DNA from: Candidatus Saccharimonadales bacterium
Lineage (GTDB): Bacteria; Patescibacteriota; Saccharimonadia; Saccharimonadales; EFPC-124
Assembly: GCA_035710125.1 (NCBI GenBank)
Contig: DASTDY010000063.1
Span: forward strand, 22,446 to 86,445
DNA: 64,000 nt
Direction: 5' to 3'
Below the pieces are notes generated by a model that worked only from the letters and a program-made list of their open reading frames with translations, was not told where the DNA came from and did not search any database. A program made the position numbers and the translations under genes. Numbering within the stretch: position 1 is the first letter of the stretch; the number at the start of each line of letters is the position of its first letter. Positions 30,076-58,642 of this stretch are shown one piece after another.

Positions 30076-30612
30076 TTATTTATACGAGGGTAAGAGCAAA
30101 TTTACCTGTACTAATGTATGCTGGTCGTCGACAGTGACTGACTGGCCACAGACATTTTTTGGTGCGTGCTCGGTGTCGTTATATAAAGCAAAAGAGAGTT
30201 TTGCCTTGCCTGGTGTAAGGTCTGTATATGAGCTGTCTTTATCTGCAAAGTACCAGTACTGTATGTAGGCGTCATCTACCTCTACAAGACCACGCTTAGC
30301 AGTGCTGGCCTGTGTAAGGGTAAACTGGCTTTGTTGCGAAGCCTTACGCACTAAAACTTCGGTTTCGTTTTGTGGTTTCTGGACAGTGTAATACGCGCCA
30401 TACCAAGGCTCCTTGTTGTCAGGGCCTTTACCTGAGCTGCCCGATTCGCAAAGTTTTTTGGCGCCTTCCGCTAGCAGGGTAGCCTCTATGGGTTGGATTG
30501 TCTCTTTGGCATAATCACGACCCAGGTATGTGGCGGCAGAGGCTAAAGCGGCAATGAGTAAACAAGCTATAAAAAATAGAGCAGTTTTTTTAGTGGTAAA
30601 ATCTTTTTTCAT
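30076..30612 (-). CDS. Membrane-anchored ectoprotein, paralog 1 of a tandem family
   Basis: 178 aa, N-terminal TM. Shares DYAKE...P-E..L...A.K.C...PWY...GK..L...C...LP.YK with the two upstream ORFs. Confidence 0.65.
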   Translation of the reverse strand: MKKDFTTKKTALFFIACLLIAALASAATYLGRDYAKETIQPIEATLLAEGAKKLCESGSSGKGPDNKEPWYGAYYTVQKPQNETEVLVRKASQQSQFTLTQASTAKRGLVEVDDAYIQYWYFADKDSSYTDLTPGKAKLSFALYNDTEHAPKNVCGQSVTVDDQHTLVQVNLLLPSYK

Positions 30613-30682
30613 ACATTCCTAAATTAGCTGGGTCCAGTATACAATTGCATGCCCAAAGGCTGTAGATAGGTTTTGTAATAAT

Positions 30683-31248
30683 CTACTTGTATTCTGGAAG
30701 GTTTAGGTTAATCCAAATCGTGGTTTTATTAGCCGGAGGGTTTGGATCAGTAATAACAGTGCACGGATTAACGCCTTTACCGTTATAAGTTTTGCCTTCA
30801 GGGACATTAATAAGTAATATGATTTTGCCTGCTTCTAGGTCGGGGTAAGGACTATCTTTAGTTTTGTCTACAAGGAGTAGGTCTGGGTTATTTCTATTTG
30901 AGGTATCAATCTGCAGAGAGAAACCGCTTTCTTGGGCCGTACTCTTTACCAAGTCTACCGCTTGTTCTTTATTGCCAGGTATATCAAAAATGGCTGAATA
31001 ACTTGGTATTCTACTATCGCCAGGAGTACGCCCCGAATGGTTTCGTGCACACTGTTTAATAGCCGCCTTAGCTACCAAAGCTTTCTCAAAAGGGGCAGCT
31101 GTTTCCTCGGCGTAGTTTCTTAAAAAGCAAGCCAGAATACAGACCACACTAAGAGTATTACTAGTAAGAGGGCGAGTATGCTGCCGAAAATGTTTCTTGC
31201 GCGTCCATTGTGGGATGGCAAAGTGATCCCTTTGAATATGCCCTGCAT
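30683..31248 (-). pseudogene. Paralog 2 of the tandem family, split by a frame change at a T5 run
   Basis: ATG at 31248 opens a 42-aa ORF encoding the missing TM anchor (MQGIFKGITLPSHNGRARNIFGSILALLLVILLVWSVFWLAF), which stops at TAA 31122-31120. The remainder (LRNYAEE...) continues in the -1 frame. One extra T would fuse the two parts. Confidence 0.65.
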
Positions 31249-31252
31249 TCAA

Positions 31253-31777
31253 CTATCGCCCCCTTGTGGGCAGGCTAATACTCAAAGATAGTGCTGTTTT
31301 TGTACTGTCACCTTGTAATTTTGTGCCATCAAAACAGTCGAGGGGTTTATCCTGTGTATCATTATAGGTATTAATATTTAGTCTAATTTTACCTCCTTCA
31401 AGGTCCTGATAGGGATTTGGCTTACTTTCTTGATCGGTAAACCATTCGATAGACTCATACGGCGAATCGCTATGTGTAAGCCTAAAACCATTGTTTTCTG
31501 CCACCTTATTTATTAGGGCGACAGCCTCACCTTTGTTTATGCTGAGTTGAAAGCGCGCCTCATACCAAGGCTCTGAGCTGTCAGGGCTCCTACCTGCATC
31601 TCCGCGTGCGCATTTTTTGATAGCACCGTTTGCAATAAGGGTTTTTTCTAAAGGTAGAGCAAGCTCCTCGGCATAGTTGCGATTAAAATGTAGCCAAAGT
31701 AGCGCAGAAGTGGCTAACGAGATGGTTACCGCGAGAAGAATAGTAAGCTTTGTTTTGAGGGAAGGCTGCATTTTCAT
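31253..31777 (-). CDS. Membrane-anchored ectoprotein, paralog 3 of the tandem family
   Basis: 174 aa, N-terminal TM LTILLAVTISLATSALLWL, then RNYAEELALPLEKTLIANGAIKKCARG...EPWY. Confidence 0.65.
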   Translation of the reverse strand: MKMQPSLKTKLTILLAVTISLATSALLWLHFNRNYAEELALPLEKTLIANGAIKKCARGDAGRSPDSSEPWYEARFQLSINKGEAVALINKVAENNGFRLTHSDSPYESIEWFTDQESKPNPYQDLEGGKIRLNINTYNDTQDKPLDCFDGTKLQGDSTKTALSLSISLPTRGR

Positions 31778-33884: not shown

Positions 33885-33960
33885 TGGTGGGGCCAGCTGG
33901 ACTTGAACCAGCGACCAATCGGTTATGAGCCGACTGCTCTAACCACTGAGCTATGGCCCC
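33885..33960 (-). tRNA. tRNA with CAU anticodon, probably tRNA-Ile2 (lysidine type); elongator Met is the alternative
   Basis: 76-nt cloverleaf GGGGCCA-TA-GCTC-AGTGGTTA-GAGC-A-GTCGG-CTCATAA-CCGAT-TGGTC-GCTGG-TTCAAGT-CCAGC-TGGCCCC-A-CCA. From memory the arms closely resemble E. coli ileX. Confidence 0.95.
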
Positions 33961-36735: not shown

Positions 36736-36810
36736 CGCGGGGTGGAGCAGAGGCAGCTCGCTTGGCTCATAACCAAGAGGTCGGGGGTTCAAGTCCCTCC
36801 CCCGCTACCA
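36736..36810 (+). tRNA. Initiator tRNA-fMet (CAU)
   Basis: 75 nt, starts CGCGGGG as in bacterial initiators. C1 is unpaired with U72, A11:U24 is present, anticodon loop CTCATAA, CCA encoded. Confidence 0.95.
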
Positions 36811-47014: not shown

Positions 47015-47091
47015 GGCAGCGTAGCTCAGTCGGTTAGAGCGTAGGACTCATAAGCCTAAGGTCACTGGTTCAATTCCAGTCGCTGCTACCA
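47015..47091 (+). tRNA. Elongator tRNA-Met (CAU)
   Basis: 77-nt cloverleaf GGCAGCG-TA-GCTC-AGTCGGTTA-GAGC-G-TAGGA-CTCATAA-GCCTA-AGGTC-ACTGG-TTCAATT-CCAGT-CGCTGCT-A-CCA. Resembles E. coli metT from memory. TACAAT -10 box at 46995-47000. Confidence 0.95.
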
Positions 47092-47165
47092 TGAAATTAT
47101 TAATTTGATCCGATCAACTAAATTTGCCCTTGGCGGCAGTAGTTGACGGTAACGGCGTTTAACAT

Positions 47166-47194
47166 GACAGCCGCGCTGATTATGCGCGGTTGTC
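47166..47194 (+). terminator. Stem-loop downstream of tRNA-Met
   Basis: gacagccgcgc-tgattat-gcgcggttgtc (one G-U pair), followed by T-rich sequence. Confidence 0.4.
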
Positions 47195-47222
47195 TGTTTG
47201 ACTGTTTTAAAAAGTTTTGCCC

Positions 47223-47702
47223 TTAACTACTTTTGGTTCGCAATGACTGCTTAAGTCCTACGATAAACCCAATGTTGAGCACGAGGGTCAGCGGAACGAA
47301 CAGGACGTAAGATAACCCAAACTGAACAGCGAACATCCAGTTCTTCGTGCAGGCTTGTGGTCTGTCAAAACCGTGGCAGTTTGCGCCCAGTGCGTCCTGC
47401 AAGACCCCAAAAAGCAGGGCGAGGATTGATAGCGCGGCTATGCCAACAAGAAATCGTAGTGTACCTATAAGAATCTTTGAAGCTTGACCTCGAAGTGCGG
47501 TTAGTGTTGCCACAAAGGCAAGAATAAATGTTGTCACTGCACCAAGGCGGAAAATTATTCCATACGGTTCCGCGAAGTGTGGATCGACAACCACAAAGGG
47601 TAAGGTTACGTAGCCAAGTGCTATGAGGGTAAGCAGGTAGGCCGTTGCCCCGACTAAGCCAATGCCTGTTGCGCTTTTCTGATTTTGGTTGTGCTTTTTC
47701 AT
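47223..47702 (-). CDS. Hypothetical integral membrane protein (4 TM)
   Basis: 159-aa ORF with four hydrophobic helices. No family recognised. Confidence 0.55.
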   Translation of the reverse strand: MKKHNQNQKSATGIGLVGATAYLLTLIALGYVTLPFVVVDPHFAEPYGIIFRLGAVTTFILAFVATLTALRGQASKILIGTLRFLVGIAALSILALLFGVLQDALGANCHGFDRPQACTKNWMFAVQFGLSYVLFVPLTLVLNIGFIVGLKQSLRTKSS

Positions 47703-47819
47703 TACCCTAATTATGCCTTACTAAAAATTGATTGCAAGAATGGAAGTCCCCGCACCGACTCGTCTCCAGAAGAAACGTTGTCGATGCGGGTTGCTCTCCA
47801 GCTTAGAGGAACTTTTTCG

Positions 47820-49985
47820 TTAGCTCAGGTGGGCCTGGATCACCTGCCGGTACGCCTGTTGGCCTTCGCGGTTGGGGTGGAACGAGATACCCGAATTCGG
47901 TGGCAAATTTGCGCCATTGAAGTAGTTGCCTGGGTTGCAAATCTCGTGACCCTTGAATGGCGACATCAGATAGTTCGGGTCGACGTACTCGAAGTTGTCG
48001 ACCAGACTGGCTGCCTCACGCAGTTCTTGGTTCAACAGCAGGATGACATCACGCGCTGCCGTTTTGTCTACTGCGTCTAGGTATCCGCAGTACGGCCATG
48101 TCACAGGAACGTCAGGAGAGGGGATGATCAATGGATATCCCACTACCAACACCCGGGTTTGTGACGACACACGGCTCTTGATCCGGCCGAACAGGTCATT
48201 CAGTTTAGGTGGCAGTACGTGGACAATGTCGTTGACCTTGTCTGCGTATACCTGGCCATCGCACGATGGTCCTGGCACCACACAGGTCTGGGCAAAGGCC
48301 ACAAACCCAATGTTGTTCCCGCCGATAGTGAGCATGACCATATCGGGGTTAACCGTGGTCAGCGCATCAAGCTGCGATGGTTCGCCGCTTTTACCGTTGA
48401 TGACATCCTGGGTGGTCGCTCCGCTACATGCCACAAAGGACGCCAGGTTCAGCCTGGTTCTTGGTGAGCCACCGAGCAGGTTCGCGTAGGCGTTTGGCGA
48501 GCGGGAGCAGCCGTTAGCCTCTTCCGAACCCGCGCCCAATCCTGCGGAGAACGAATCGCCCAATACAACAAGGCTCCGCCATGGTTCGTTGTACTTCAGA
48601 ACCGCGCCACGCTGAAATTCTAGATCTACACCCCTAAAGTCGATGGCGTAGAGCTTTTTCTCTGAGCCGCAGCTGTCCCAGTTGCATCGGGCCAAGACAA
48701 CGTACGCACGCCCGTTGGTCGTGGCGGCTGCGATGTTGCCATGCAAGATGTAGCCCTGGGTTTCTCCTGTGAACCCCTTGCGCGCAATAATCTGGCCCGT
48801 TGCACCGCTGATGAGCACGATGTTTACTCGCCGCGAGTTGATCGAACTATCACCCGAGGCGTAGTATGTTTGCTGCAGCAGGACGTCGCCACGGATGGTG
48901 ACGCTGAAGTTGTGGTTGATGTTGTGCGTGGTCATGGAACTAATTTCCAGAGCCACTTCCCACAACTTGCTACCAGTGCCATCCAGAGCCACCAGCTTGC
49001 GTTCAGCTGGACCGAAGCCGTCGTTGGTGTACTCGTACACCTCGGCGACAACCCCGCCGTTCAACGACGCCTTTATACGGACTACCTGAGTGCAGTTAGG
49101 TAGCAGGTGAACCCAGCCTGGTCCGTCGGGAGCCATCGCCTGGATGTGCTTCATCGTGCCTACACCCATCGTACCGCAGAGGGTCTGCTGGCCGTTGGAC
49201 GTAGCCACCGGGTAGAAAGTCCACCCGTTTGCATCTGTTGCGATTGCGCGGTCGGCCGTCAGCCTGAAGTCAGGGATTACCACCGGGCCGCTCGTCGATC
49301 CCTCGTACGAGAAGTACTGCACGCCGTTGGCGAGCTGTACAACCAGGCCGTTACCGAACGCGGCAAGACTGTCGTTGGTCTGGCCGCCAAACTGGCCGGT
49401 AATTGCCGCATCCAGCAGAATGTTTGGCTCGGATGAACCTGGCGCAACTTCTGGCGTGTACCCAACGAGCCGGTACGACCCGTTGCAGTGCACAACCCCG
49501 TACACATTGCCGTTGACGCCCATCGCCATGGAGTAGACGTCGTCGCAACCAGTCGGGAACGCCTTGCTCCACTTCAGCTGGCCGTCCTTCAGCGCGAGCA
49601 ACCTGGATTGGTTGCCCACGACACCAGCCGAGTACAGCGTGCCGTCCTTGCCGAGCGTTGATTGCCCGGTGCAGGCGTACAGCCGCAGGCCGGTGTTGTT
49701 CGCGACATCCTGGGCCGAGCCGGCAGCGTTGGTGAGTGTGTACGTTCTTGCCTGTGAAGCGTCACCGCTTGGTGCGCCGCAGGCTGCGGCGGTCACCTTG
49801 CCATCCATGTGGCCGAACATTCGCGCGGGAGTTACGCCGTTGTCGAGGCTGGTTTCCCAGGCGACCGTCGGCTCGGTGACTAGCGGATCGGCGACAGCTG
49901 ACACTGGTGATGAGACCAGTGAAGCGCCGCACAAAATTGCAATCGTTGTTAGTGCGTTTACAATTCTGGTTCTTCTTTGACGCAC
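47820..49985 (-). CDS. GC-rich secreted protein: N-terminal beta-propeller-like region + C-terminal SGNH/GDSL hydrolase (lipase/esterase)
   Basis: GTG start, signal peptide ...LVSSPVSAVA. SGNH blocks VVLGDSFSAGLG, ACSGATT, LTIGGNNIGF, ISFHPN. Many overlapping ORFs in the track. Confidence 0.8.
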   Translation of the reverse strand: MRQRRTRIVNALTTIAILCGASLVSSPVSAVADPLVTEPTVAWETSLDNGVTPARMFGHMDGKVTAAACGAPSGDASQARTYTLTNAAGSAQDVANNTGLRLYACTGQSTLGKDGTLYSAGVVGNQSRLLALKDGQLKWSKAFPTGCDDVYSMAMGVNGNVYGVVHCNGSYRLVGYTPEVAPGSSEPNILLDAAITGQFGGQTNDSLAAFGNGLVVQLANGVQYFSYEGSTSGPVVIPDFRLTADRAIATDANGWTFYPVATSNGQQTLCGTMGVGTMKHIQAMAPDGPGWVHLLPNCTQVVRIKASLNGGVVAEVYEYTNDGFGPAERKLVALDGTGSKLWEVALEISSMTTHNINHNFSVTIRGDVLLQQTYYASGDSSINSRRVNIVLISGATGQIIARKGFTGETQGYILHGNIAAATTNGRAYVVLARCNWDSCGSEKKLYAIDFRGVDLEFQRGAVLKYNEPWRSLVVLGDSFSAGLGAGSEEANGCSRSPNAYANLLGGSPRTRLNLASFVACSGATTQDVINGKSGEPSQLDALTTVNPDMVMLTIGGNNIGFVAFAQTCVVPGPSCDGQVYADKVNDIVHVLPPKLNDLFGRIKSRVSSQTRVLVVGYPLIIPSPDVPVTWPYCGYLDAVDKTAARDVILLLNQELREAASLVDNFEYVDPNYLMSPFKGHEICNPGNYFNGANLPPNSGISFHPNREGQQAYRQVIQAHLS

Positions 49986-50119
49986 AGCTACCGATACCTT
50001 TCGTGAAAAGAACGAGCGAAACTAGCCCGCCCTATGAGGTGGGTTCGCTAAATGCCGGAAGAGCGCCATTATTAATTGCACAAGATGCCTCGAAGTACAA
50101 GCTTTTTTATTGGAGCTAG

Positions 50120-50146
50120 CTGGTTCGATCCCCATCGTTACTACCA
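50120..50146 (+). repeat. tRNA 3'-end-like fragment (T-loop, T-stem 3' strand, acceptor 3' strand, ACCA)
   Basis: ctggTTCGATCCCCATCGTTACTACCA aligns with tRNA-Met 47065-47091 (about 25 of 32 positions including 5 nt of flank). It has no 5' half. Confidence 0.45.
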
Positions 50147-50174
50147 TAAAACCGAACTAAGCTATTATGTATCT

Positions 50175-51179
50175 ATGAAGATCACACTTACCGAACTCAA
50201 CAGTAAAGTTATGGCTGGCGTAAAGAAGCTTGGATACAAGGGCGAGGATGCCCAAATTATATGTGACACTCTGCTGTACGCACAGCTTCGGGGCAATAAC
50301 CAAGGCATTGCCAAGTTGGCAACGAATGGAGTGCCAAAGGCCAGCGAAATCGAACCGTTTGCACTTGTTAGGGAACATAAAAGCGGCGCGTTATTTTCTG
50401 GTGGCCATGCAATGGTTGCAAGCATGAAGGCGGCGCAAAAGGCGGTAGAGCTCGCAAAGGAGCATGGCGTTGGCGTTGCTGCGTTAAACCATACGCACAC
50501 TTCATCTGGTGCGATTGGGTATTTTGCCCGCCATATCGCCAAAGAAGGTTTTATTGCACTTGTTTGCGTGGGCAATGGCGACTGGGCGGCGGTTGCGCCA
50601 ACTGGTTCGGCCGAACCAAAACTAGGCACCAACCCTTTGGCATACGCTTTCCCTTATGATGGCGGCGAGGTTGTGTTCGACACCGCCACGGCCGCAATTG
50701 CCTATTATGGTGTGGTGCAGGCCATGCTCACCGGCGAACCACTGCCAAAAGGTGTCGCCTTAAATAGCAAGGGCGAACCAACCACAGATGCCAATCAAGT
50801 TTTAGGCAAGGGCGGCGGCGAAGATGTTGGCGGTGCAATCACCACATTTGCAGACCATAAAGGTTTTGGCTTGTCACTATTTGTGCAGCTGATGGGCAGC
50901 GCCTTTTCTTTAGCGGGCATGCCAGGCGCACACGGCGATGATGGCGGCGGTACGTTCGTTTTGGCAATTGACCCTGGTTTGTTAGCCGGAACCGACGAAT
51001 ACATGAAACGCAGCCGTGAATTAGTAGAGAGTATTAGGTCGGCAAAACCGATTGCCGGCCAGCGCGTGTATCTGCCAGGTGAGCGGGGCGATATGCTAGC
51101 AAAGCAAGCGGCTACAACAGGCGAGATCGAAATTGCAGATGGCATTTGGCGACAGCTTTGCACTTTTGTTGATTCGTAA
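50175..51179 (+). CDS. Ldh_2 family (malate/L-lactate/sulfolactate-type) dehydrogenase
   Basis: MKITLTELNSKV...LLYAQLRGNNQGIAKL...NHTHTSSGAIGYF pattern of PF02615-type oxidoreductases. I use the ATG at 50175. Confidence 0.8.
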   Translation: MKITLTELNSKVMAGVKKLGYKGEDAQIICDTLLYAQLRGNNQGIAKLATNGVPKASEIEPFALVREHKSGALFSGGHAMVASMKAAQKAVELAKEHGVGVAALNHTHTSSGAIGYFARHIAKEGFIALVCVGNGDWAAVAPTGSAEPKLGTNPLAYAFPYDGGEVVFDTATAAIAYYGVVQAMLTGEPLPKGVALNSKGEPTTDANQVLGKGGGEDVGGAITTFADHKGFGLSLFVQLMGSAFSLAGMPGAHGDDGGGTFVLAIDPGLLAGTDEYMKRSRELVESIRSAKPIAGQRVYLPGERGDMLAKQAATTGEIEIADGIWRQLCTFVDS

Positions 51180-51221
51180 CGCACCCTTTATTTACAGCCT
51201 TATCCGCCGTAGACTTATGGT

Positions 51222-51737
51222 ATGGAAATGAATTTTTGCCGCAGGTGCAGCGCCAAGCTTACTCAGACACAAGAATATGCGTTCCAATGCGCCAGTGGCC
51301 ACTTAATTTTTGCCAACTCGCCAGCCGCGACCGGCATGATGTTTATAAATGATAAAAAACAGGTACTGGTAATTCGCAGGGCGATCGACCCAGGCAAAGG
51401 CAAAATAGATATGGGCGGTGGATTTTGCGATGGTGGTGAAACCGCCGAAGCCTGCCTTTTGCGGGAAGTCCAAGAAGAACTTGGCCTGTCGCCAGCCGAT
51501 TACGACCCACCCAAATTTTTGTTGAGCTGTATAGACAGCTATGAGTTTAAGGGCGAGGTCGTGCCAGTGCTTTCCCTTATTTTTTGGACACACATAAAAC
51601 CAAACGCCCACATTACCGTGGCAGACGATGTGGCCGCTGCTGAATTTGCAAGTTTTGAAGCCATCGATTCACGCGACATTCAGTTTGAGTCGTTCGCCAA
51701 ATCTTTAGAAGTCTTACGGGACAGAGGCGTTATTTAG
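51222..51737 (+). CDS. Nudix hydrolase with N-terminal zinc ribbon
   Basis: CRRC...CASGH ribbon and canonical Nudix box GGGFCDGGETAEACLLREVQEELGL. Confidence 0.85.
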   Translation: MEMNFCRRCSAKLTQTQEYAFQCASGHLIFANSPAATGMMFINDKKQVLVIRRAIDPGKGKIDMGGGFCDGGETAEACLLREVQEELGLSPADYDPPKFLLSCIDSYEFKGEVVPVLSLIFWTHIKPNAHITVADDVAAAEFASFEAIDSRDIQFESFAKSLEVLRDRGVI

Positions 51738-51816
51738 CAAGCTACTACCTTGTGGATATTTATTAAAAAATATGTCAAGATACCAGAGAAAAGGCACCAA
51801 TTAAGGTAGGTAGAGC

Positions 51817-52332
51817 GTGCAGAACAGCCAGCCAAGGCGTGTGACCCTTGTGGTCGATGTGCCAGCCGGTTCGGAAGTCAACGCAGAGATAGACAGATTT
51901 TTGGAGCTATTGAAGGAGCACGGTAGCCAGGTGCACGTACGGCATTTGAGCTCGGCGCGTCCGATTGAGGATGTCCGGGTGAGCGAAATGATCGCTTTTA
52001 TGCGAGATAAAATAACACCCAACAAGCCGAACAATGCAGGCGGAATGGCGCACCACTTGTTCCGGTCGCTGTTGCGGCGTTTCGCCATGACTGGGCTCTT
52101 GGTGGCACGATGTCGGGAATGCTGTCAGATCATGGGAGTGTGCCGTTGTACCACAAGAGGCACTCTTGCGTGTGACGGTAAAACCTGGGTGTACCAGCTT
52201 ACGCCTAACCACTGGGATCTGGACAGGGCCGGTTTGCTTTCGTTGCGCCGGTCACAGCTGGCCATGCTTGGCCCGCGTACAAGCGAACGTGCTGCGTTGT
52301 TCCAGGACTTCTTGCGCGCCACTGGTGAATAA
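51817..52332 (+). CDS. GC-rich hypothetical protein with Cys cluster
   Basis: GTG start after AAGGTAGG. 171 aa. Cys cluster CRECCQIMGVCRC...C. Overlapping ORFs on both strands. Confidence 0.5.
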   Translation: MQNSQPRRVTLVVDVPAGSEVNAEIDRFLELLKEHGSQVHVRHLSSARPIEDVRVSEMIAFMRDKITPNKPNNAGGMAHHLFRSLLRRFAMTGLLVARCRECCQIMGVCRCTTRGTLACDGKTWVYQLTPNHWDLDRAGLLSLRRSQLAMLGPRTSERAALFQDFLRATGE

Positions 52333-52345
52333 CCTTGGTCGCCTT

Positions 52346-52377
52346 GCACGGACCTCCTATCGCTAGGAGGTCCGTGC
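52346..52377. terminator. 13-bp perfect GC-rich stem-loop without U-tail between convergent GC-rich genes
   Basis: gcacggacctcct-atcgct-aggaggtccgtgc. Confidence 0.6.
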
Positions 52378-52385
52378 TTAGTCCG

Positions 52386-52823
52386 TCAGTCGCCCGATTT
52401 TTTGGGTTTGGGAATGAGTCCCCGGTCGGTCATGCCACTGATGATCGATTCGGCGGTCAAGAAGGGGAACTGCGCCGTGATGCGTGCGGCGAGGCCATCT
52501 GTTGGGAGCTCGGCCTGCAATGAGGGGTCGATCTTCTCGAGCAGCACCAGATGCACCAACTTAGCCTTGACCGTTTCGCCCATGGCCAAGATTTCGTGCT
52601 GGTTGGGCAGGCCGCCTGCAAGTTCGATCCGCAGGATGCCCTTTGGTCCCCGGCTCAGCACCACAAGTTTCATGTTCTCGAGGTGCTCAAGAGCCTTCAA
52701 GACAGTTTGCGGTGACAAGCCATCGTCGATGTGAGCGCCAACCTTGGTCACAGGACTGGTCGCGGTCCGCTCGAATGGCCCGTTATCGCGAATTGCCCGG
52801 TACACTTTGAGTACAGCGTTCAT
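52386..52823 (-). CDS. GC-rich hypothetical protein, possible winged-helix regulator
   Basis: 145 aa. The segment LSPQTVLKALEHLENMKLVVLSRGPKG looks like wHTH. Its upstream region holds the palindrome ATCTAGAT. Confidence 0.45.
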   Translation of the reverse strand: MNAVLKVYRAIRDNGPFERTATSPVTKVGAHIDDGLSPQTVLKALEHLENMKLVVLSRGPKGILRIELAGGLPNQHEILAMGETVKAKLVHLVLLEKIDPSLQAELPTDGLAARITAQFPFLTAESIISGMTDRGLIPKPKKSGD

Positions 52824-52898
52824 ACCACTCCTCGGGGGTTGGTCGGACGTATCAATTATCTAGATGATAGGGGTTAAGGTCAAGCACAGATTACTGAT

Positions 52899-55800
52899 TT
52901 AGCGGCTTGCTGGGTATTGGGTTTGTATTTCCATGTAGTCTACGTCCATGGTGCGTGATGTGGTGCCAGCTGATTTTACAAGGTTAATGTTTAGGCTACT
53001 CTCTTCGCCGGCGCCGCTTGGGATACCAGACGCGACAGTACAGCTTGTTGTGCCATTAACCGTAAAGACGGCTGCTGTAGCGGCGGCATTTACGTTAACC
53101 GTTAGCCTGTACCATGATCCAGCAGCTACGGCGACGGTTGTGTTACAGGTAGTGGTTACGCCCGCTTTAACGCAAACGCCTTGCCAGTTGCCACTTTGCA
53201 CGCTGTGGGTGTAGCGGAAGAAACAGCCGTCTGTGCCATCGGTGGTAACTGAGTCGGCAAAACCGATACGCGATGTAAAGGTTTCTGTGCCATCGGAGAG
53301 GTTATTGATACGAACTACTGTCTCAAGTTGGATATTTTCACTTCCAAAGTAATAGGCTTGGCCAGGATCGTTAGTACCGACGTTTGACCATCCTGTAGTG
53401 GTTGTGCCGGTAGCGAGCCGTATAATACCTTGGTGGCCAGCTATTGAGGCAATGTTGGTATGGCTTGCGCCTGCGCCGCTGTCTTGGATACTTATAACGC
53501 TGTCCCCGGCAGTAGTTATAAAATCGTTGTCATAGCGGTAGCTGGTGCGGGTGGTTGATATACAATCGTTCCACGCGCTGTTTTCGTAACAACGCATTTT
53601 ACCTAGGCTTGAGTTATAGTACATGCCACCATTTACGCCTGTTGGGTCGCCTGCACTGGTTTTTGTGTCAAGCACAAGCAATGCGCCAGTAGTGTCGCCG
53701 GTTGGGTTGCCTATGTACATACGCGAGTTGCTTGCATCTACCACAAACTGAGGTACGCTCGCGCTGTTAAGGACACGGAAGGCGGTGGTAGAGTTACTAT
53801 AGTTCTGGAATGTCGATGCGCCCCCGTTATTAACTGATACCACCCTGCCAACTCCGGTAACATCTAATTGCAGCACATCGGCAGTCTGGCCTGAAACACC
53901 AGTGACTTTTAGGCCGACTTGGCTGGTTGAAGCCGTGGTCACATCGACGGCCGCATCCACAGGGGTCATATTTACGCCAATGCCTGCGTTTGTAACGACT
54001 AGCCGGTTTGTGCCCCCTATGTTTGAGGCTATTTTACCTGCTGCTTCGGAATTTTTGATAAAGAAATCCGTATTCGAGCCGTCCCATGAAAATCCGCCGA
54101 TTTGGTTTTCGTTGGGGCTTAAAACTGCGAGCGTTGGTTGGTGTGCGCCAGCTCGTGCGTCTAATAAGGTAATAGCGCGCGAGGTGGAATTAGCAGTCGA
54201 AGGCAACCCCATTGCAATAAGTTGCCCTGACCCGCCTGGGTCGTAGTTTAATATATTTATCATTGTATCGACAGTATTGCCCAGAGGTGTTGTGTAAAGG
54301 TCGCTAATTGAGTCTGCACTGCCGCTTAGTCGGAGGGCGCCCCTTATTTCTAGCCCTTCATTGGCAAGTGTCGGTAAGTTACTGGCGCTTAATCCAATAC
54401 CTACGCGGCCATTAGTGGTATCTATGGTGAATATGTTGTTGCCGAGCGAAGTTTTGACGTTGAGCGCTGAGGTAGAATCGAGGGCCGGTTGCATGGCAAA
54501 CGCACCTTGCAAAGTGAGTGTTTTACCGCTGGCAAAAGTAGTATCTTGCTGCATAGCTATGCTGGTTGCGTTGGTGGTACCTATGGCAAGTGCGCCGGCG
54601 GTCGCGCGGTCGAACAATGGGGCTTGCAGGGCGGTGTCGGCACGGCCAGTACCAGAAATCCAGAAGTTTGCGCTTGTTTGCTGCGCGGCGTTTTGGTTTT
54701 GAATGGCCGAAGCAGCCGAAGCTGTGCATCCGCTCGACGTACAAATTGTAACGCCGCCAATTCGGTAGGCACCGCTGGTGTTTGTGTCGCCTGTTACATC
54801 GAGTGTGTAAACGGGCGCTGAGCTGTTTCCAACGCGCACCTTGCCGCCACCTGCTGCCAAGTAGTTGTTATTTGTGGTGAATGGGCTTAAGAACAAGGAA
54901 CTGCCGCTAGCGCCATCTAAGGTTAAGTTGCCGTTAGAGCCACGGTTAGTGCTGGCAGTTATGCCGTTTGCGCCTGCCTCTTGGCTTTGCAGGATTAGGT
55001 CGCCAAAACGGCCCTGCACTATTTGGCCGATAGCAAGGCCGGTGGGGCCAACATCGAAGTCAGCAGCCGGTGCACTGTTATTTATGCCTACGCGGTTATT
55101 GCTGGTATCCACATTAAATACGCTGCCTGCCGAAGAATTTTGTATCTGGAACCCAGTTACGGCATTAGTGCTGTTTTTAAATAGTACGTTGCCGCCATTA
55201 GGAGACACGGCAAACACATCGGTACCGCTATTTTGTACGGCAAACCGGCCGTTGGTGCTACAAGTTGTGGTGCATTGTAGGTTGACTAAGAAGTTGCTGT
55301 CGGTTGCGGTGTCGGCTAGGTTAAAGGTTATATTACGGTTGTCGGTGGTGGTTATAGAGTTACCATTGTTGTAAGCAGTTTGCAGCGTTGCAGTGCTGGC
55401 ACAGTTGCCAGAGTCCAAACATACCGTACCACTTACATTTGGCAAAGTAATAGTGCGGTTGGCAGAAAGCGTAGTGGTGCCCAAGGTAACGCTAAAGTTA
55501 CTGTTTGTGCCGTCCGCAAATTTAAGGCTACCTGCCTGCGTTGTGCCGCTGGCGGCAATACGGCCGAGGGTAAGCTGGCCACTGGCATTAAATAAACTTA
55601 ATACATCGCCGCTAGAATTTTGGATTTGCAGTAGGTCGGTCGATTGCAAGGTGCCGCCCTTTAATGCAACTGTGCCGTTGGCAGCGTAGGTCAGCGAACG
55701 GCTGCCTGGCCCTAAAAGCTGCATAATATCGCCGGTTTGGCCACTGTTGATGCCGCTCACTTGCAAACCAATTTGGCTGTCTGCTTGGGTCACTACCTTT

Positions 55801-58577
55801 ACGGCTATACCAGTGTCGGCGGCTGCGCCAAAGGCAGCGGCGCCTGCTACGTCTATTTTGTGGGCGTAATGGGCGTTGCCAAAAGTATCTAGGTTGTACA
55901 CGGCAACATCGTTTGTGTCATCTACCCGAATAAAGTCGGCAGTTTGCGTGGGCCGTTGCTTAATATGCACGGTTATATCGGCGTCGTTGGCGCTGCGAAT
56001 TGCAATGTTGGCGGTCTGCGGAGTAGTCGTGTTATGGATATAGTTGCCGCTGCCGCTGCCAGGGGCATAGCCGGTACAAACTGATCCTGTAGTACACACA
56101 GTGCCAGATTCGTTAGGCAGCACAATCGACCGGCTAGCCGACGGCGTAGCGGCAGTTAGCGTTGTGGTGTTGGTATTGCTAGAATTTGCAAACACCAATG
56201 TGCCATTTAGCGAACTGCTTTGTCCTAAGACAATCTGCGCACCGCTGGTATCTACTGTAAACGCCCGTACTCCGGCAGCATTTTGCACACTAAAGGCCGT
56301 TGCCGAATTTATGCCATTTTGGAAGACGAGCGTATTACCCGTGAACGTTTGGGACGCATCTAGCTTGGCAAGGTTGGCGTCGTTAGAAAGGTTAGCCGAC
56401 GAGATTTGGGTGCCGTTGATCCTAAACTGGTTACCTGTTGTAAGGTTTAAGTTGCCGTTAACCGTGACTACCGAGCCAGACTCCGAAAGCAGGGAGTCGC
56501 CAATAACCTGGCCGGCTGTGAACTTGGCTAGCGTGCCGATCGTGCCGCCTGGTGTTGTAACGCCTCCGCCCACGCCTGCACAGTTACCAGATGTGCTACA
56601 GACGTCATATGTACCGGCTGTAACCGTAGGGAACCGGTATGAAACATTGGCAGTTGGCGTTTGGAATGTCAAAGATGTGGTGCTTGCACCGTTGGTGGCA
56701 GTAATACTCGACGACGCGTTGCCCTGTAGTAAAAAGCTCTGCCCCGTAGCTCCAATAGTGAGCGACCCTGTAGGTGTAATGGTATTTGCGTTTAATGTTC
56801 CAATCACACTCGCGCCGCCATTTAAGCTGGCAGAACCGGCGACTGCCAACGTGCCAGTAAAGCTAGCTGCGCTACTTATGGTCTGGCCATTTATGGTGCT
56901 AGCAACAGTTACAGCGCCCGCGGGGCTCACTGCAAACCGGCTGCTGCCGTTTAATTGCACGTCTAATAAGTTGCCCGTTGCACCGACGTTGGTGTTATTT
57001 ACAAGAAGCATGGCGCTGCTGGCCTCGCTACTTGTAAGTGAAAGGCGGGCAAAGGTAGGCGCAGCAGTAGTGTTGATGTCTTGAATTGTATTAATAGTGC
57101 CACTAGACGCCGAGAAGTTGGTGCCATTAAACTGCGCAATACCTTTTTGGCTGGTAGATGCGTCGTTTATAGTGATTGTCGAACCCGCTGCACTAGCGTT
57201 TGCTACAGTGAGTGCACCCGTAAGGCCATTTAAAGATGTAACGCCGCTACCACCAGGGCAAGCCGAGAACGCTGGTGCGCCTGCGGTAGACATTAAACAT
57301 AGGCCCGAACCGCCTGCTGTTACTGCAGTCAGCGCGCCCGCACCTTGGCCAATCAATACGCCATTATTAGCCAGTGAAGTCGCGCCTGTGCCGCCGTTAC
57401 CCACAGTCAGTGCCGTACCTAAAGTAAGTGATCCGCCTACGGCGGCATTGCTAGTGGTGCTGAGGCTGCCATTTACAGTGACAGTCGCGCCAGACTCAGA
57501 CAACAATGAGTCTTCGATTGTTTGCACACCGGTAAATTTGGCTATCCGTCCTGCGGTACCCCCAGGGCTTTGCACGGTTCCTGACCCCGCGCCGCTGTTA
57601 CTGATTGTTATGTTGCCAGCGCCGTCATTAGTTACGGTTATGCCACTACCTGCTGTGGCGCTTACAACGCCTGCATTTTGTAATTGCTTGTCGGGAGTGA
57701 TTGTGAGGCCAGTGCCAACTGTAATGTCGCCCGTTGTGCCGCCAAGGGAAGTAACACCGGTGTTACTGAGTGTCGTGCCATTAACAGCAATTCCTGCGCC
57801 GCCAATAAGCGTAACATTGCCAGTTTGCCCTTGAAGGCTCAATACGCCGGAGTTGCTAATTTGTCCGTTCGCGCCGTTCAAACCTTGCCCTAGTGTTACC
57901 TGGCCACTGAATCCGCTTATGCTGCGTACAATATTAGTGGTGCCAGCTACGGGCACAAATTGAGCGCCATTAAAGTAGGCAAGCTCGTTGTTGTTGGCGT
58001 CAAAATAAATCTGCCCTCGCTGTGCGTTGCTGGGCTGGGTAGATGGCGAGATTGTAAAGCCATCGTTTGCAAGTAAGGGTCCATTAACTATTAAACTGCG
58101 GGTGCCAAGCAGGGTTAGGCCATCTTGGTTAATAAAATCTTCGAGCGGAATCTGAACCGAATCAAACCGGCTTGCTACCTGGCCAGCCTCTTTTTTATTA
58201 GAGGTAAACGCATTGTAGGCGAGCCATAACCCACCAAGTACAAGCAGGCCTAGCGCAACGAAGGCGGTGTATTTTAAGATTTTTTTCCATGGGAGGGGTG
58301 TGCGCGGTCTTGGGGCGGGTGGCGGAGTAGGTGGGGTTGTTGGGGTAATTGCAGGTTCGACACTAGGTTGTGGCGGAGGTGAAACAGGTGGGATAGGCGG
58401 CGCCGGCGCAGCGGCTGGTTGTACAGGCGGGGTAGCAGGCAGTACAGGGGCAGCAGGAATCACTTGGCCGTAGCCAAAAGAAGCAGATTGCTGCGTGGCG
58501 TCATTACCCTGAACTCCCGTTGCACGAACGTCCTGAAATTTATTATCCACCGTTTTTATTTTTCTCGAGGCTCTCAT
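52899..58577 (-). CDS. Giant surface protein (~1,892 aa): Pro-rich cytoplasmic tail, one TM, long beta-rich repeat stalk, C-terminal ConA/LamG-like domain
   Basis: ATG at 58577 preceded by GAGGAG. TM YTAFVALGLLVLGGLWLAY. Module PGGT.G..AKFT..Q.I.DSLLSESG..VTVNG.L occurs twice about 335 aa apart. The C-terminal ~200 aa are jelly-roll-like. Confidence 0.85.
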   Translation of the reverse strand: MRASRKIKTVDNKFQDVRATGVQGNDATQQSASFGYGQVIPAAPVLPATPPVQPAAAPAPPIPPVSPPPQPSVEPAITPTTPPTPPPAPRPRTPLPWKKILKYTAFVALGLLVLGGLWLAYNAFTSNKKEAGQVASRFDSVQIPLEDFINQDGLTLLGTRSLIVNGPLLANDGFTISPSTQPSNAQRGQIYFDANNNELAYFNGAQFVPVAGTTNIVRSISGFSGQVTLGQGLNGANGQISNSGVLSLQGQTGNVTLIGGAGIAVNGTTLSNTGVTSLGGTTGDITVGTGLTITPDKQLQNAGVVSATAGSGITVTNDGAGNITISNSGAGSGTVQSPGGTAGRIAKFTGVQTIEDSLLSESGATVTVNGSLSTTSNAAVGGSLTLGTALTVGNGGTGATSLANNGVLIGQGAGALTAVTAGGSGLCLMSTAGAPAFSACPGGSGVTSLNGLTGALTVANASAAGSTITINDASTSQKGIAQFNGTNFSASSGTINTIQDINTTAAPTFARLSLTSSEASSAMLLVNNTNVGATGNLLDVQLNGSSRFAVSPAGAVTVASTINGQTISSAASFTGTLAVAGSASLNGGASVIGTLNANTITPTGSLTIGATGQSFLLQGNASSSITATNGASTTSLTFQTPTANVSYRFPTVTAGTYDVCSTSGNCAGVGGGVTTPGGTIGTLAKFTAGQVIGDSLLSESGSVVTVNGNLNLTTGNQFRINGTQISSANLSNDANLAKLDASQTFTGNTLVFQNGINSATAFSVQNAAGVRAFTVDTSGAQIVLGQSSSLNGTLVFANSSNTNTTTLTAATPSASRSIVLPNESGTVCTTGSVCTGYAPGSGSGNYIHNTTTPQTANIAIRSANDADITVHIKQRPTQTADFIRVDDTNDVAVYNLDTFGNAHYAHKIDVAGAAAFGAAADTGIAVKVVTQADSQIGLQVSGINSGQTGDIMQLLGPGSRSLTYAANGTVALKGGTLQSTDLLQIQNSSGDVLSLFNASGQLTLGRIAASGTTQAGSLKFADGTNSNFSVTLGTTTLSANRTITLPNVSGTVCLDSGNCASTATLQTAYNNGNSITTTDNRNITFNLADTATDSNFLVNLQCTTTCSTNGRFAVQNSGTDVFAVSPNGGNVLFKNSTNAVTGFQIQNSSAGSVFNVDTSNNRVGINNSAPAADFDVGPTGLAIGQIVQGRFGDLILQSQEAGANGITASTNRGSNGNLTLDGASGSSLFLSPFTTNNNYLAAGGGKVRVGNSSAPVYTLDVTGDTNTSGAYRIGGVTICTSSGCTASAASAIQNQNAAQQTSANFWISGTGRADTALQAPLFDRATAGALAIGTTNATSIAMQQDTTFASGKTLTLQGAFAMQPALDSTSALNVKTSLGNNIFTIDTTNGRVGIGLSASNLPTLANEGLEIRGALRLSGSADSISDLYTTPLGNTVDTMINILNYDPGGSGQLIAMGLPSTANSTSRAITLLDARAGAHQPTLAVLSPNENQIGGFSWDGSNTDFFIKNSEAAGKIASNIGGTNRLVVTNAGIGVNMTPVDAAVDVTTASTSQVGLKVTGVSGQTADVLQLDVTGVGRVVSVNNGGASTFQNYSNSTTAFRVLNSASVPQFVVDASNSRMYIGNPTGDTTGALLVLDTKTSAGDPTGVNGGMYYNSSLGKMRCYENSAWNDCISTTRTSYRYDNDFITTAGDSVISIQDSGAGASHTNIASIAGHQGIIRLATGTTTTGWSNVGTNDPGQAYYFGSENIQLETVVRINNLSDGTETFTSRIGFADSVTTDGTDGCFFRYTHSVQSGNWQGVCVKAGVTTTCNTTVAVAAGSWYRLTVNVNAAATAAVFTVNGTTSCTVASGIPSGAGEESSLNINLVKSAGTTSRTMDVDYMEIQTQYPASR

Positions 58578-58620
58578 CTGCCCGAGATAACTCCTCTCTA
58601 ATCGTATAACGCTTATGTTG

Positions 58621-58642
58621 TTTTGGCAAGCCCTTGCCAAAA
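58621..58642. other. Perfect palindromic hairpin between atpC and the giant gene
   Basis: ttttggcaag-cc-cttgccaaaa. The track's TTG start at 58640 lies inside it. Confidence 0.45.

Follow-up and report, generated by a model that had tools for sequence, protein, structure and literature searches.

What kind of event has shaped the region behind the elongator-type tRNA-Met gene of a Candidatus Saccharimonadales bacterium (assembly GCA_035710125.1)? In the stretch of 64,000 nt analysed here (contig DASTDY010000063.1, positions 22,446–86,445; hereafter the window, to which all coordinates without a locus handle refer), this gene is followed by a gene for a secreted SGNH hydrolase and then by a second, incomplete copy of the tRNA 3' end. 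An earlier note on this DNA had read the arrangement as a decayed island of about 3 kb, enclosed by repeats resembling left and right attachment sites (attL and attR), whose integrase was lost. The results presented below make it likely that an element of the AICE type (actinomycete integrative and conjugative element) was once inserted in the 3' end of the tRNA-Met gene and then decayed, losing its integrase. This reading of a decayed island is supported because the synteny with related genomes breaks at the tRNA 3' end, because an arm of an AICE-type attachment (att) site follows the CCA of the tRNA and because the closest relative of the SGNH cargo gene is located on a contig bearing such an att site.

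Saccharibacteria are obligate epibionts of Actinobacteria and have very small genomes. To our knowledge, gene acquisition by these bacteria is poorly documented. An att scar beside a cargo gene, the nearest relative of which is carried along with att sites of the same family, constitutes concrete and checkable evidence in this respect.

The tRNA-Met gene, its downstream copy and the break in synteny

The intact elongator-type tRNA-Met gene (anticodon CAT) is located at 47015–47091 on the plus strand, where the earlier note had placed it, and was recognised by both ARAGORN and the Rfam tRNA model (70 bits). Its last 45 nt (47047–47091) correspond to the att core on the attL side, and its 3' end is unchanged in the relatives L015, L017, L018 and L124. 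A degenerate copy of this 3' end, the probable remnant of the attR core, was found on the same strand, 3055 nt downstream, at 50120–50146. It consists of the T-arm, the 3' strand of the acceptor stem and ACCA, and has no 5' half. In an ungapped alignment of gCTGGTTCGATCCCCATCGTTACTACCAtaaaa (50119–50151) with the last 28 nt of tRNA-Met plus 5 nt of flank, 25/33 positions are identical. A direct-repeat search scored the pair at 25/32 (78%), in agreement with the approximately 25 of 32 positions noted before, and the pair is the longest direct repeat within 46.9–53.0 kb. The resemblance between the 5-nt flanks (tgaaa and taaaa), which had been counted as part of the repeat, is a chance match; relatives have other flanks.

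When both strands of the window were compared with the tRNA 3' end, values of at least 21/33 were reached only by the three real tRNA genes and by the fragment, with a background maximum of 20. The binomial expectation for at least 25/33 is approximately 2e-4 per window. Since the match exceeds both the background maximum and this expectation, the repeat is real, and the concern that it might fall within chance for tRNA-like T-loops can be put aside. The question of which tRNA it resembles most also has a clear answer. The 28-nt tRNA part of the fragment is identical at 21/28 positions to the resident tRNA-Met and at 17/28 positions to each of the other CAT tRNAs, and across approximately 340 kb of related loci and approximately 20 assorted tRNAs, at least 20/28 was found only in the 3' ends of orthologous elongator tRNA-Met genes. 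Seven of the eight differences between fragment and tRNA are transitions (P = 0.003 under random differences), which speaks for a tRNA-Met ancestor of the fragment and against convergence. The acceptor strand of the fragment (CGTTACT) is unable to pair with the 5' strand of the tRNA (GGCAGCG), and its T-stem is broken; judged from these letters, the fragment is a decayed copy that would be unusable as a 3' half. Neither an exact source of the fragment nor an intact tRNA with its 3' end was found in viral contigs (three patterns) or in metagenome contigs.

The nearest relatives for synteny are L015/L016, L017 and L018, with identities of the P-type ATPase of 73–77%. These loci and the window have the same gene order from window position 27 kb, approximately, through a gene for a 170-aa protein to tRNA-Met inclusive. 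The synteny with L015, L017 and L018 ends exactly at the last base of tRNA-Met and restarts at a giant surface-protein gene (52899–58640). Because synteny stops there, the 3' end of tRNA-Met is the sharp boundary of a variable region. In the window, the non-syntenic 5.8 kb comprise an open reading frame (ORF) for a protein with four transmembrane segments (4-TM ORF), the SGNH gene, the fragment, an Ldh_2 gene, a Nudix gene and two GC-rich ORFs. The same slot is occupied by 7.4 kb of unrelated genes in L015 and L017 and by yet another gene in L018, and the block at 47.1–50.15 kb is absent from the syntenic site in all three of these distant relatives. Of the proposed island of about 3 kb, the left boundary at the tRNA 3' end is thus retained, while the non-syntenic stretch turned out to be longer, reaching 52.9 kb.

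The attachment-site arm, the cargo gene and the missing mobility genes

Metagenome contigs were scanned for tRNA-Met-type 3' ends to see what lies downstream of them. Three high-GC contigs, L023, L091 (the same sequence as L023) and L075, hold only the 3' 45 nt of tRNA-Met, from the anticodon loop to the CCA. There, this piece adjoins genes for a tyrosine integrase, an HTH_17 excisionase-like protein, Replic_Relax and a TrwB/FtsK-like protein of 739 aa. The same att arrangement was found in L013, which is part of the 26.7-kb contig SRR25232104_45367 of Logan and had been fetched independently as the carrier of the closest SGNH homologue and has a tRNA-Lys-like core, and in the isolate genome of Amycolatopsis japonica (L143, GCA_040653795.1), which has a Met core. 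In L013, L023/L091, L075 and L143, the cores are flanked by paired direct repeats TTGACGGYAAC, 190–191 nt apart. A core accompanied by arm-type integrase-binding repeats is the layout of the attP site of AICEs such as pSAM2. Named homologues of the integrase at 52–61% identity belong nearly all to Actinobacteria (Amycolatopsis, Streptomyces, Micromonospora, Pseudonocardiaceae); the lone non-actinobacterial one stems from a metagenome-assembled genome (MAG) labelled Sphingomicrobium. AICEs with tyrosine integrases insert at tRNA 3' ends and typically show the structure att-tra-rep-int-att, and closely related AICE integrases use either tRNA-Lys or tRNA-Met (Ghinet et al. 2011, PMC3218068).

In the window, the sequence directly past the CCA of the complete tRNA-Met reads ...ATCAAC...TTGGCGGCAgtagTTGACGGTAACGG. 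Based on a profile match, the motif and the alignment to L023 and L013, the region 47093–47156 (plus strand) was identified as what is left of an AICE-type attP on its integrase-proximal side, the P' arm. This remnant contains the arm-type direct repeats TTGGCGGCA (47130–47138) and TTGACGGTAAC (47143–47153), both on the plus strand, and the exact motif TTGACGGYAAC has its single occurrence in 64 kb at 47143–47153. An nhmmer profile of four P' arms, from which the tRNA sequence was excluded, matches 47093–47156 at model positions 1–64, in register with attP. For a search space of 1.18 Mb the E value is 3.6e-6; for the window it is 2e-7, with the next match there at 0.33. The identity of the window arm to each of the reference arms is 61–69%, and the reference arms are no closer to one another. 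In global alignment, the arm obtained a score of 21, whereas the sequences downstream of tRNA-Met in 116 other loci did not exceed 4. The feature shared by the att-site family of L013, L075, L091 and L143, a P' arm with paired TTGACGGYAAC-type repeats approximately 40–60 nt past the CCA, is therefore present. A 10-bp hairpin (47167–47193) with a T-rich tail (47167–47209 in total, plus strand) stands at the same position past the P' arm as a hairpin in L013; it was not called by a simple terminator scan.

The attP core of L075 and the resident tRNA-Met are identical at 42/45 positions, and the element attP core is identical (45/45) to the tRNA-Met of other Saccharimonadales-like contigs. At the level of sequence, attL after integration would be precisely this, a complete tRNA with a P' arm behind it. 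When viral contigs were searched for the paired arm motif, one match was obtained, in a phage tail gene, which is due to chance, and a blastn comparison of the attP region with plasmids yielded no matches.

Comparison of the T-arms provides additional means to judge the fragment. The T-loop of the resident tRNA-Met is TTCAATT, as in its relatives, and that of the fragment is TTCGATC, as in the cores of L075 and L143. The first 14 nt of the fragment, on the T-arm side, are identical at 13/14 positions to these two cores, compared to 11/14 for the resident tRNA-Met; over all 28 nt, the values are 23/28 for the L075 core, 22/28 for the L143 core and 21/28 for the resident tRNA-Met. A crossover 3' of the T-loop would leave the host T-loop in the tRNA and place the element T-loop in the distal copy, as observed. 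The difference is small and some Saccharimonadales tRNAs carry the same T-loop, so that this evidence is consistent with an element origin and not decisive. The fragment is nevertheless probably of the element-core type, and not the displaced end of the resident tRNA itself, as had been assumed. Of the attL/attR-like pair proposed earlier, the attL member is thus backed by the P' arm, and the attR member is likely rather than established, as no P arm is found at the fragment. On balance, we favour the assignment of the fragment as attR.

The cargo gene (47820–49985, minus strand) encodes a secreted protein of 721 aa, in which a signal peptide is followed by a beta-propeller-like region in the N-terminal part and by an SGNH/GDSL domain of the lipase type in the C-terminal part. 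The Pfam family Lipase_GDSL_2 (PF13472) matches residues 474–711 with an E value of 9.8e-20 and 72 bits, which is above the cut-off of 32.9. G476-D477-S478, G555-G556-N557 and H703, representing the GDS(L) serine, Gly, Asn and C-terminal His blocks, are invariant across seven homologues. In the PDB, the SGNH domain matches a phospholipase A1 (4HYQ, E value 1e-22) and a lipase (5MAL, 6.5e-20) of Streptomyces, and its predicted fold matches both with TM-scores of 0.78–0.80 on the target. The likeness to these enzymes covers the sequence of the C-terminal domain, the predicted fold and the SGNH block residues; the window protein differs by its additional N-terminal beta-propeller-like domain of approximately 430 residues. 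In the AlphaFold model, residues 40–450 are all-beta, with pLDDT (predicted local distance difference test) values of 70–87. The Foldseek matches of this region are beta-propellers (CylK, acylaminoacyl peptidase, NirF), although weak ones with TM-scores of 0.2–0.5, and Pfam gave no match. A search of 5.8 billion proteins found eight of this architecture, including that of the window itself. The hairpin, the 4-TM gene and the secreted SGNH hydrolase that the earlier note had seen between the repeats are thus all present (hairpin 47167–47193, ORF of 159 aa, protein of 721 aa), with the qualification that the propeller is only propeller-like.

The closest homologue of the 721-aa protein, with an amino acid identity of 55%, is P0002 in L013. 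Its gene is located 7.7 kb from the attP of that contig, amid Replic_Relax, TraB-like and Lsr2 genes, and in both L013 and the window the SGNH gene lies on the strand opposite to the core. When 47820–49985 was compared with L013 10001–12244, the nucleotide identity was 70–85% in the 5' third of the coding sequence and approximately 50% in the SGNH part. This mosaic suggests recombination within the gene, and the values of the 5' part would indicate either that this part was shared far more recently or that it is under strong constraint. The similarity extends into the leader or promoter region of 109 nt (49986–50094, minus strand), which is approximately 88% identical to the leader of the L013 homologue (53/60 at 50010–50069); the homology ends at 50094. 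The leader contains a terminator-like hairpin with a U-run (50032–50014, minus strand) approximately 25 nt ahead of the start codon. It has no match in Rfam and may be an unrecognised attenuator or riboswitch-like leader.

The GC content at third codon positions (GC3) of the SGNH gene is 0.70, compared to approximately 0.50 for its neighbours. The GC-richness described earlier is therefore correct, but it is weak evidence when taken alone. GC content was considered as proof of a foreign origin and downgraded, since chromosomal homologues in Saccharimonadales are likewise GC3-rich. Three tandem paralogous ORFs elsewhere in the window (174–189 aa, 30076–31777) show 35–41% identity to the gene just upstream of the SGNH homologue of L014 (L014 9262–9825).

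The 4-TM ORF (47223–47702, minus strand) encodes a multi-pass membrane protein of 159 aa and has a GC3 of 0.49. Pfam and PHROG gave no match for it, and tblastn found no counterpart in any of the loci fetched. The small genes located behind SGNH homologues elsewhere, which were compared as possible relatives of this ORF, are not homologous to it. When all ORFs of L013, L091 and L075 were compared with the window by tblastn, the SGNH gene was the sole match. Because a recombinase, an excisionase (Xis), a replication gene and an FtsK/TraB-like translocase are all absent from 47.0–52.9 kb, the window does not contain a functional AICE. Related loci gave the same picture: in a scan of 134 ORFs, taken from the 7 kb behind tRNA-Met in approximately 120 loci, no integrase is among the 25 Pfam families with most ORFs, and phmmer with the L013 integrase found nothing significant among the ORFs downstream of tRNA-Met.

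Proposed history and competing explanations

The following history would account for these observations. A circular AICE-type element with a tyrosine integrase, an excisionase, Replic_Relax and a TraB/FtsK-like translocase would have entered the cell, presumably by conjugation or DNA uptake. Recombination between the chromosomal gene and the attP core, a mimic of the 3'-terminal 45 nt of tRNA-Met, would have been carried out by the tyrosine integrase of the element, bound to the arm repeats. The left product is attL, in which the P' arm and its two arm-type repeats come after the complete tRNA, as present in the window; the right product, attR, would have carried the element-derived copy of the tRNA 3' end and probably corresponds to the fragment. 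Later deletions would have stripped the integrase, excisionase, replication and transfer genes as well as the P arm, leaving a remnant no longer able to excise. The survivors would be the P' arm at 47093–47156, the SGNH gene together with the conserved leader and, at 50120–50146, the worn copy of the core. The secreted lipase-type gene was presumably kept under selection. In this history, which we infer from the data above, fragment and attL go back to the same event, the SGNH gene came on that element and the donor lineage was actinobacterial.

A number of results weigh against this history. Neither upstream of the fragment nor anywhere else in the window did a profile of the P arm find a match. 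In the att family, the P arm is expected approximately 105 nt upstream of the second core copy, and this space is filled by the SGNH leader, whose homology to L013 reaches within 25 nt of the fragment. In its 3' half, where host and element are the same, the fragment shows four changes in 14 nt; this needs appreciable decay, yet the GC3 of the SGNH gene is still deviant. Taken together, the absent P arm, the decayed 3' half and the leader homology close to the fragment mean that at least two deletions must be assumed. No gene for an integrase, Xis, Rep or Tra protein and no remnant of one was found in 47.0–52.9 kb with Pfam, PHROG and tblastn. The place of the integrase is taken by the 4-TM ORF, which has a host-like composition and no relatives in elements. 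The empty site predicted earlier, tRNA-Met followed directly by Ldh_2, was not found among the closest relatives, which are distant (ATPase identity at most 77%) and have other genes throughout 47.1–52.9 kb; furthermore, the variable region continues for 2.75 kb past the fragment, to 52.9 kb. Other Saccharimonadales have homologues of the SGNH protein, with 36–40% identity, whose genes stand in ordinary surroundings on the chromosome and are in some cases GC3-rich too. Because of these chromosomal homologues, the SGNH family cannot be called foreign to the phylum, and the gene may have been transferred in either direction. Finally, the activity of the tyrosine integrase at tRNA-Met is deduced from the scar, and attP is intact with both arms in the chromosomes at L143 11100–13460 and L091 7575–9960. 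In these two loci, a large serine recombinase of 629–641 aa is encoded just past the P arm, and in L143 the 3' end of its gene overlaps tRNA-Ala(CGC). The element seems to have been inserted there via the serine recombinase, keeping an unused tRNA-Met-type attP.

Several of these points would be expected if separate events had taken place at a tRNA-Met hot spot. The AICE-type element would then have been deleted nearly completely, the fragment would be the scar of another, older integration or of tandem accretion, and the SGNH and 4-TM genes would be independent of both. Such a course of events agrees with the lack of a P arm beside the fragment, with the far stronger decay of the fragment compared to the P' arm, with the chromosomal sites of SGNH homologues in other Saccharimonadales and with a variable stretch that reaches 52.9 kb and includes a second GC-rich patch. 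In relatives, secondary copies of the tRNA-Met 3' end also come in many forms, among them tandem copies and single-gene inserts (L109, L043, L040). We nevertheless regard it as unlikely, given that the nearest relative of the SGNH gene, with a near-identical leader, is found on a contig with the same att family, that the T-arm of the fragment is of the type found in these attP cores and that gene and core have the same orientation as in L013.

The same features of the T-arm and the leader argue against a fragment that arose without any site-specific recombination, as a pseudogene from a local partial duplication or from a truncated second tRNA-Met gene. It departs from the resident tRNA mainly by transitions, as a decaying paralogue would, and some related contigs, e.g. 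L061 and L115, do have extra full copies of tRNA-Met. No trace of a 5' half is left, however, the homology to the L013 leader extends to within 25 nt of the fragment, the T-loop departs from the resident gene towards the element core and the P' arm independently indicates an integrase-type event at tRNA-Met; an origin as pseudogene is therefore very improbable. We attach even less credence to a fortuitous T-loop-like string combined with a P' arm that results from a chimeric join of MAG and actinobacterial DNA at the shared tRNA sequence. The source is indeed a metagenome-assembled genome, and element core and tRNA share 42/45 nt. On the other side, the matches of both fragment and P' arm are far beyond chance, and only 64 nt of element sequence are present before Saccharimonadales genes and, at 52.9 kb, conserved synteny follow, so that a chimera would need two precise misjoins.

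Within the favoured reading of a decayed AICE-type insertion, we tentatively consider a further step, which the data leave somewhat in doubt: an actinobacterial AICE may have crossed phyla into a Saccharimonadales epibiont and delivered a secreted lipase-type enzyme that was kept as the element decayed. With an attP core so similar to the tRNA-Met of the epibiont (42/45), integration would be possible following conjugative transfer (of the TraB type, with double-stranded DNA) or uptake from the host cell. If this is true, host-to-epibiont transfer of whole integrative elements would be a route of gene gain in bacteria of the candidate phyla radiation (CPR), with elongator tRNA-Met as its landing pad. 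The scar would indicate that site-specific integrative elements operate, or once operated, across the host–epibiont boundary, and suggests gene traffic with the actinobacterial hosts. It also makes elongator tRNA-Met a candidate hot spot of integration in the Saccharimonadales group, and provides a defined DNA site (47093–47156) and an integrase family for testing. A secreted lipase/phospholipase A1-like cargo protein with a propeller-like domain would be a plausible tool to attack the host envelope or to feed on it.

Known systems, neighbouring genes and other tRNA-Met loci

The known system closest in its att site is the AICE itself, with an att site on the 3' part of a tRNA (anticodon loop to CCA), arm-type direct repeats on both sides and an adjoining tyrosine integrase. 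The P' arm of the window belongs to this family, and the reference loci L013, L023/L091, L075 and L143 carry the int-xis-rep-tra set. The use of Lys or Met tRNAs by related integrases is reflected in the Lys-like core of L013 and the Met cores of the other reference loci. The window differs in that int, xis, rep and TraB are missing and a single arm is left, making it a scar rather than an element, and in its host, which belongs to the Saccharimonadales (CPR/Patescibacteria) and is not an actinomycete.

Remnants of ICE (integrative and conjugative elements) or IME (integrative and mobilisable elements) that are flanked by att sites and have lost their recombination and transfer genes are reportedly known as cis-mobilisable elements (CIME) from work on ICESt1 and ICESt3 of Streptococcus thermophilus. 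The window resembles them in having cargo between attL- and attR-like repeats at a conserved target gene without an integrase of its own. CIMEs differ by keeping both att sites functional and being mobilisable in trans, whereas the putative attR of the window has no P arm and its core is 18–25% diverged; mobilisation of this remnant in trans would be unlikely. In Prochlorococcus, tycheposon-shaped tRNA-proximal islands contain partial tRNAs and degenerated element remnants from successive integrations (bioRxiv 10.1101/2020.12.28.424599). They share with the window a streamlined genome, a tRNA-anchored variable island and cargo genes that outlast integrases, and differ in integrase and att family, element architecture and host; the Saccharimonadales loci examined contained no intact element. 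As a class, decayed tRNA-linked islands, CIME-like remnants and tRNA-anchored islands with partial tRNAs are thus well known. Unusual are the host, a CPR epibiont of Actinobacteria, and an att family that can be identified as the actinomycete AICE type. We found no published report of such a scar in such a host in the literature, our coverage of which is incomplete.

The remaining non-syntenic stretch (50147–52898) is not assigned to the element. It begins with the Ldh_2 gene (50175–51179) and the Nudix gene (51222–51737), both on the plus strand, assigned by Pfam and with host-like GC3. These are followed by two convergent GC-rich ORFs, one of 171 aa with a GC3 of 0.64 (51817–52332, plus strand) and one of 145 aa with a GC3 of 0.72 (52386–52823, minus strand). 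None of the four genes is found at the corresponding place in L015, L017 or L018. The two GC-rich ORFs have no matches in Pfam, PHROG or plasmids; they share a hairpin at approximately 52336–52378 and form a second compositionally foreign patch (51817–52823) inside the variable region.

Homologues of Ldh_2 in eleven genomes of the GTDB have no neighbour in common with the window and are uninformative with regard to the empty site. In other Saccharibacteria, Ldh_2 was found directly 3' of tRNAs of varying identity, namely Gly-TCC, Gln-CTG or Gln-TTG (L001 9837–9911; L003 5085–5300; L010 8507–8578), and in L003 the 3' end of tRNA-Gln is repeated approximately 130 nt downstream, just ahead of Ldh_2. 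None of these Gly or Gln tRNAs near Ldh_2 matches the fragment. Nudix (Pif) genes are often present in AICEs (PMC3218068). L041, another Saccharimonadales-like contig, has a Nudix gene two genes past tRNA-Met (oriented +1093 to +1563), with 35% identity over 118 aa to that of the window. This gene is a weak hint that the ancestral neighbour of tRNA-Met on the right-hand side may have been Nudix.

The window contains three tRNA(CAT) genes within 13 kb, at 33885–33960 (minus strand), 36736–36810 (plus strand) and 47015–47091 (plus strand), which from their sequences we take to be Ile2-like, initiator-like and elongator-type, respectively. The cluster is kept in L015 and L017.

Partial copies of the tRNA-Met 3' end with at least 15/18 identical positions were found in related contigs, 13 of them downstream on the same strand, one upstream and one on the opposite strand. 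The recurrent downstream copies would mark tRNA-Met as a frequent integration target. In many Saccharimonadales-like contigs, between one and three units of 175–220 nt stand behind elongator tRNA-Met. Each unit consists, in this order, of a terminator hairpin including ACCA, an inverted imperfect copy of the 3' third of the tRNA, a variable hairpin, a direct GTCACAGG and approximately 80 nt, and a direct copy of the last 17–27 nt of the tRNA. Such tRNA-mimicking units are located at L022 396–613, L043 2912–3099 (minus strand), L085 312–496, L092 1707–1884, L093 3709–3894, L109 2036–2253 and 2254–2434, L126 4079–4276 (minus strand), L025 9357–9529 (minus strand) and L060 908–1097. They belong to no Rfam family, and the consensus folding of a crude alignment was weak. 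The units may be related to miniature inverted-repeat transposable elements (MITE-like) or represent a miniature integrative element with tRNA-mimicking ends. The window contains none of them; the fragment was considered as the end of such a unit of approximately 200 nt, which was ruled out by the sequence upstream of it, the SGNH leader.

Two loci are parallels to the locus in the window. In L040 (2020–4950), tRNA-Met and a terminator are followed by a single GC-rich gene for a protein of 839 aa on the opposite strand, whose N-terminus is GH38-like as judged by eye, and a degenerate copy of the tRNA 3' end is located 2846 nt downstream. In L124, a tRNA identical to that of the window is followed by an ORF of 620 aa on the opposite strand with a GC content of 0.59–0.65. 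In addition, the high-GC contig L110 (1–400) carries a tRNA-Met with an actinobacterial-looking 5' part and a 3' end reading ...GTCGCTGCTACCA, which results in a G6-G67 mismatch in the acceptor stem. An AT-rich stretch with the direct repeats ACATGGGTAACACTT (twice) follows this tRNA, and the arrangement resembles the attL of another family of integrative elements that uses the same tRNA.

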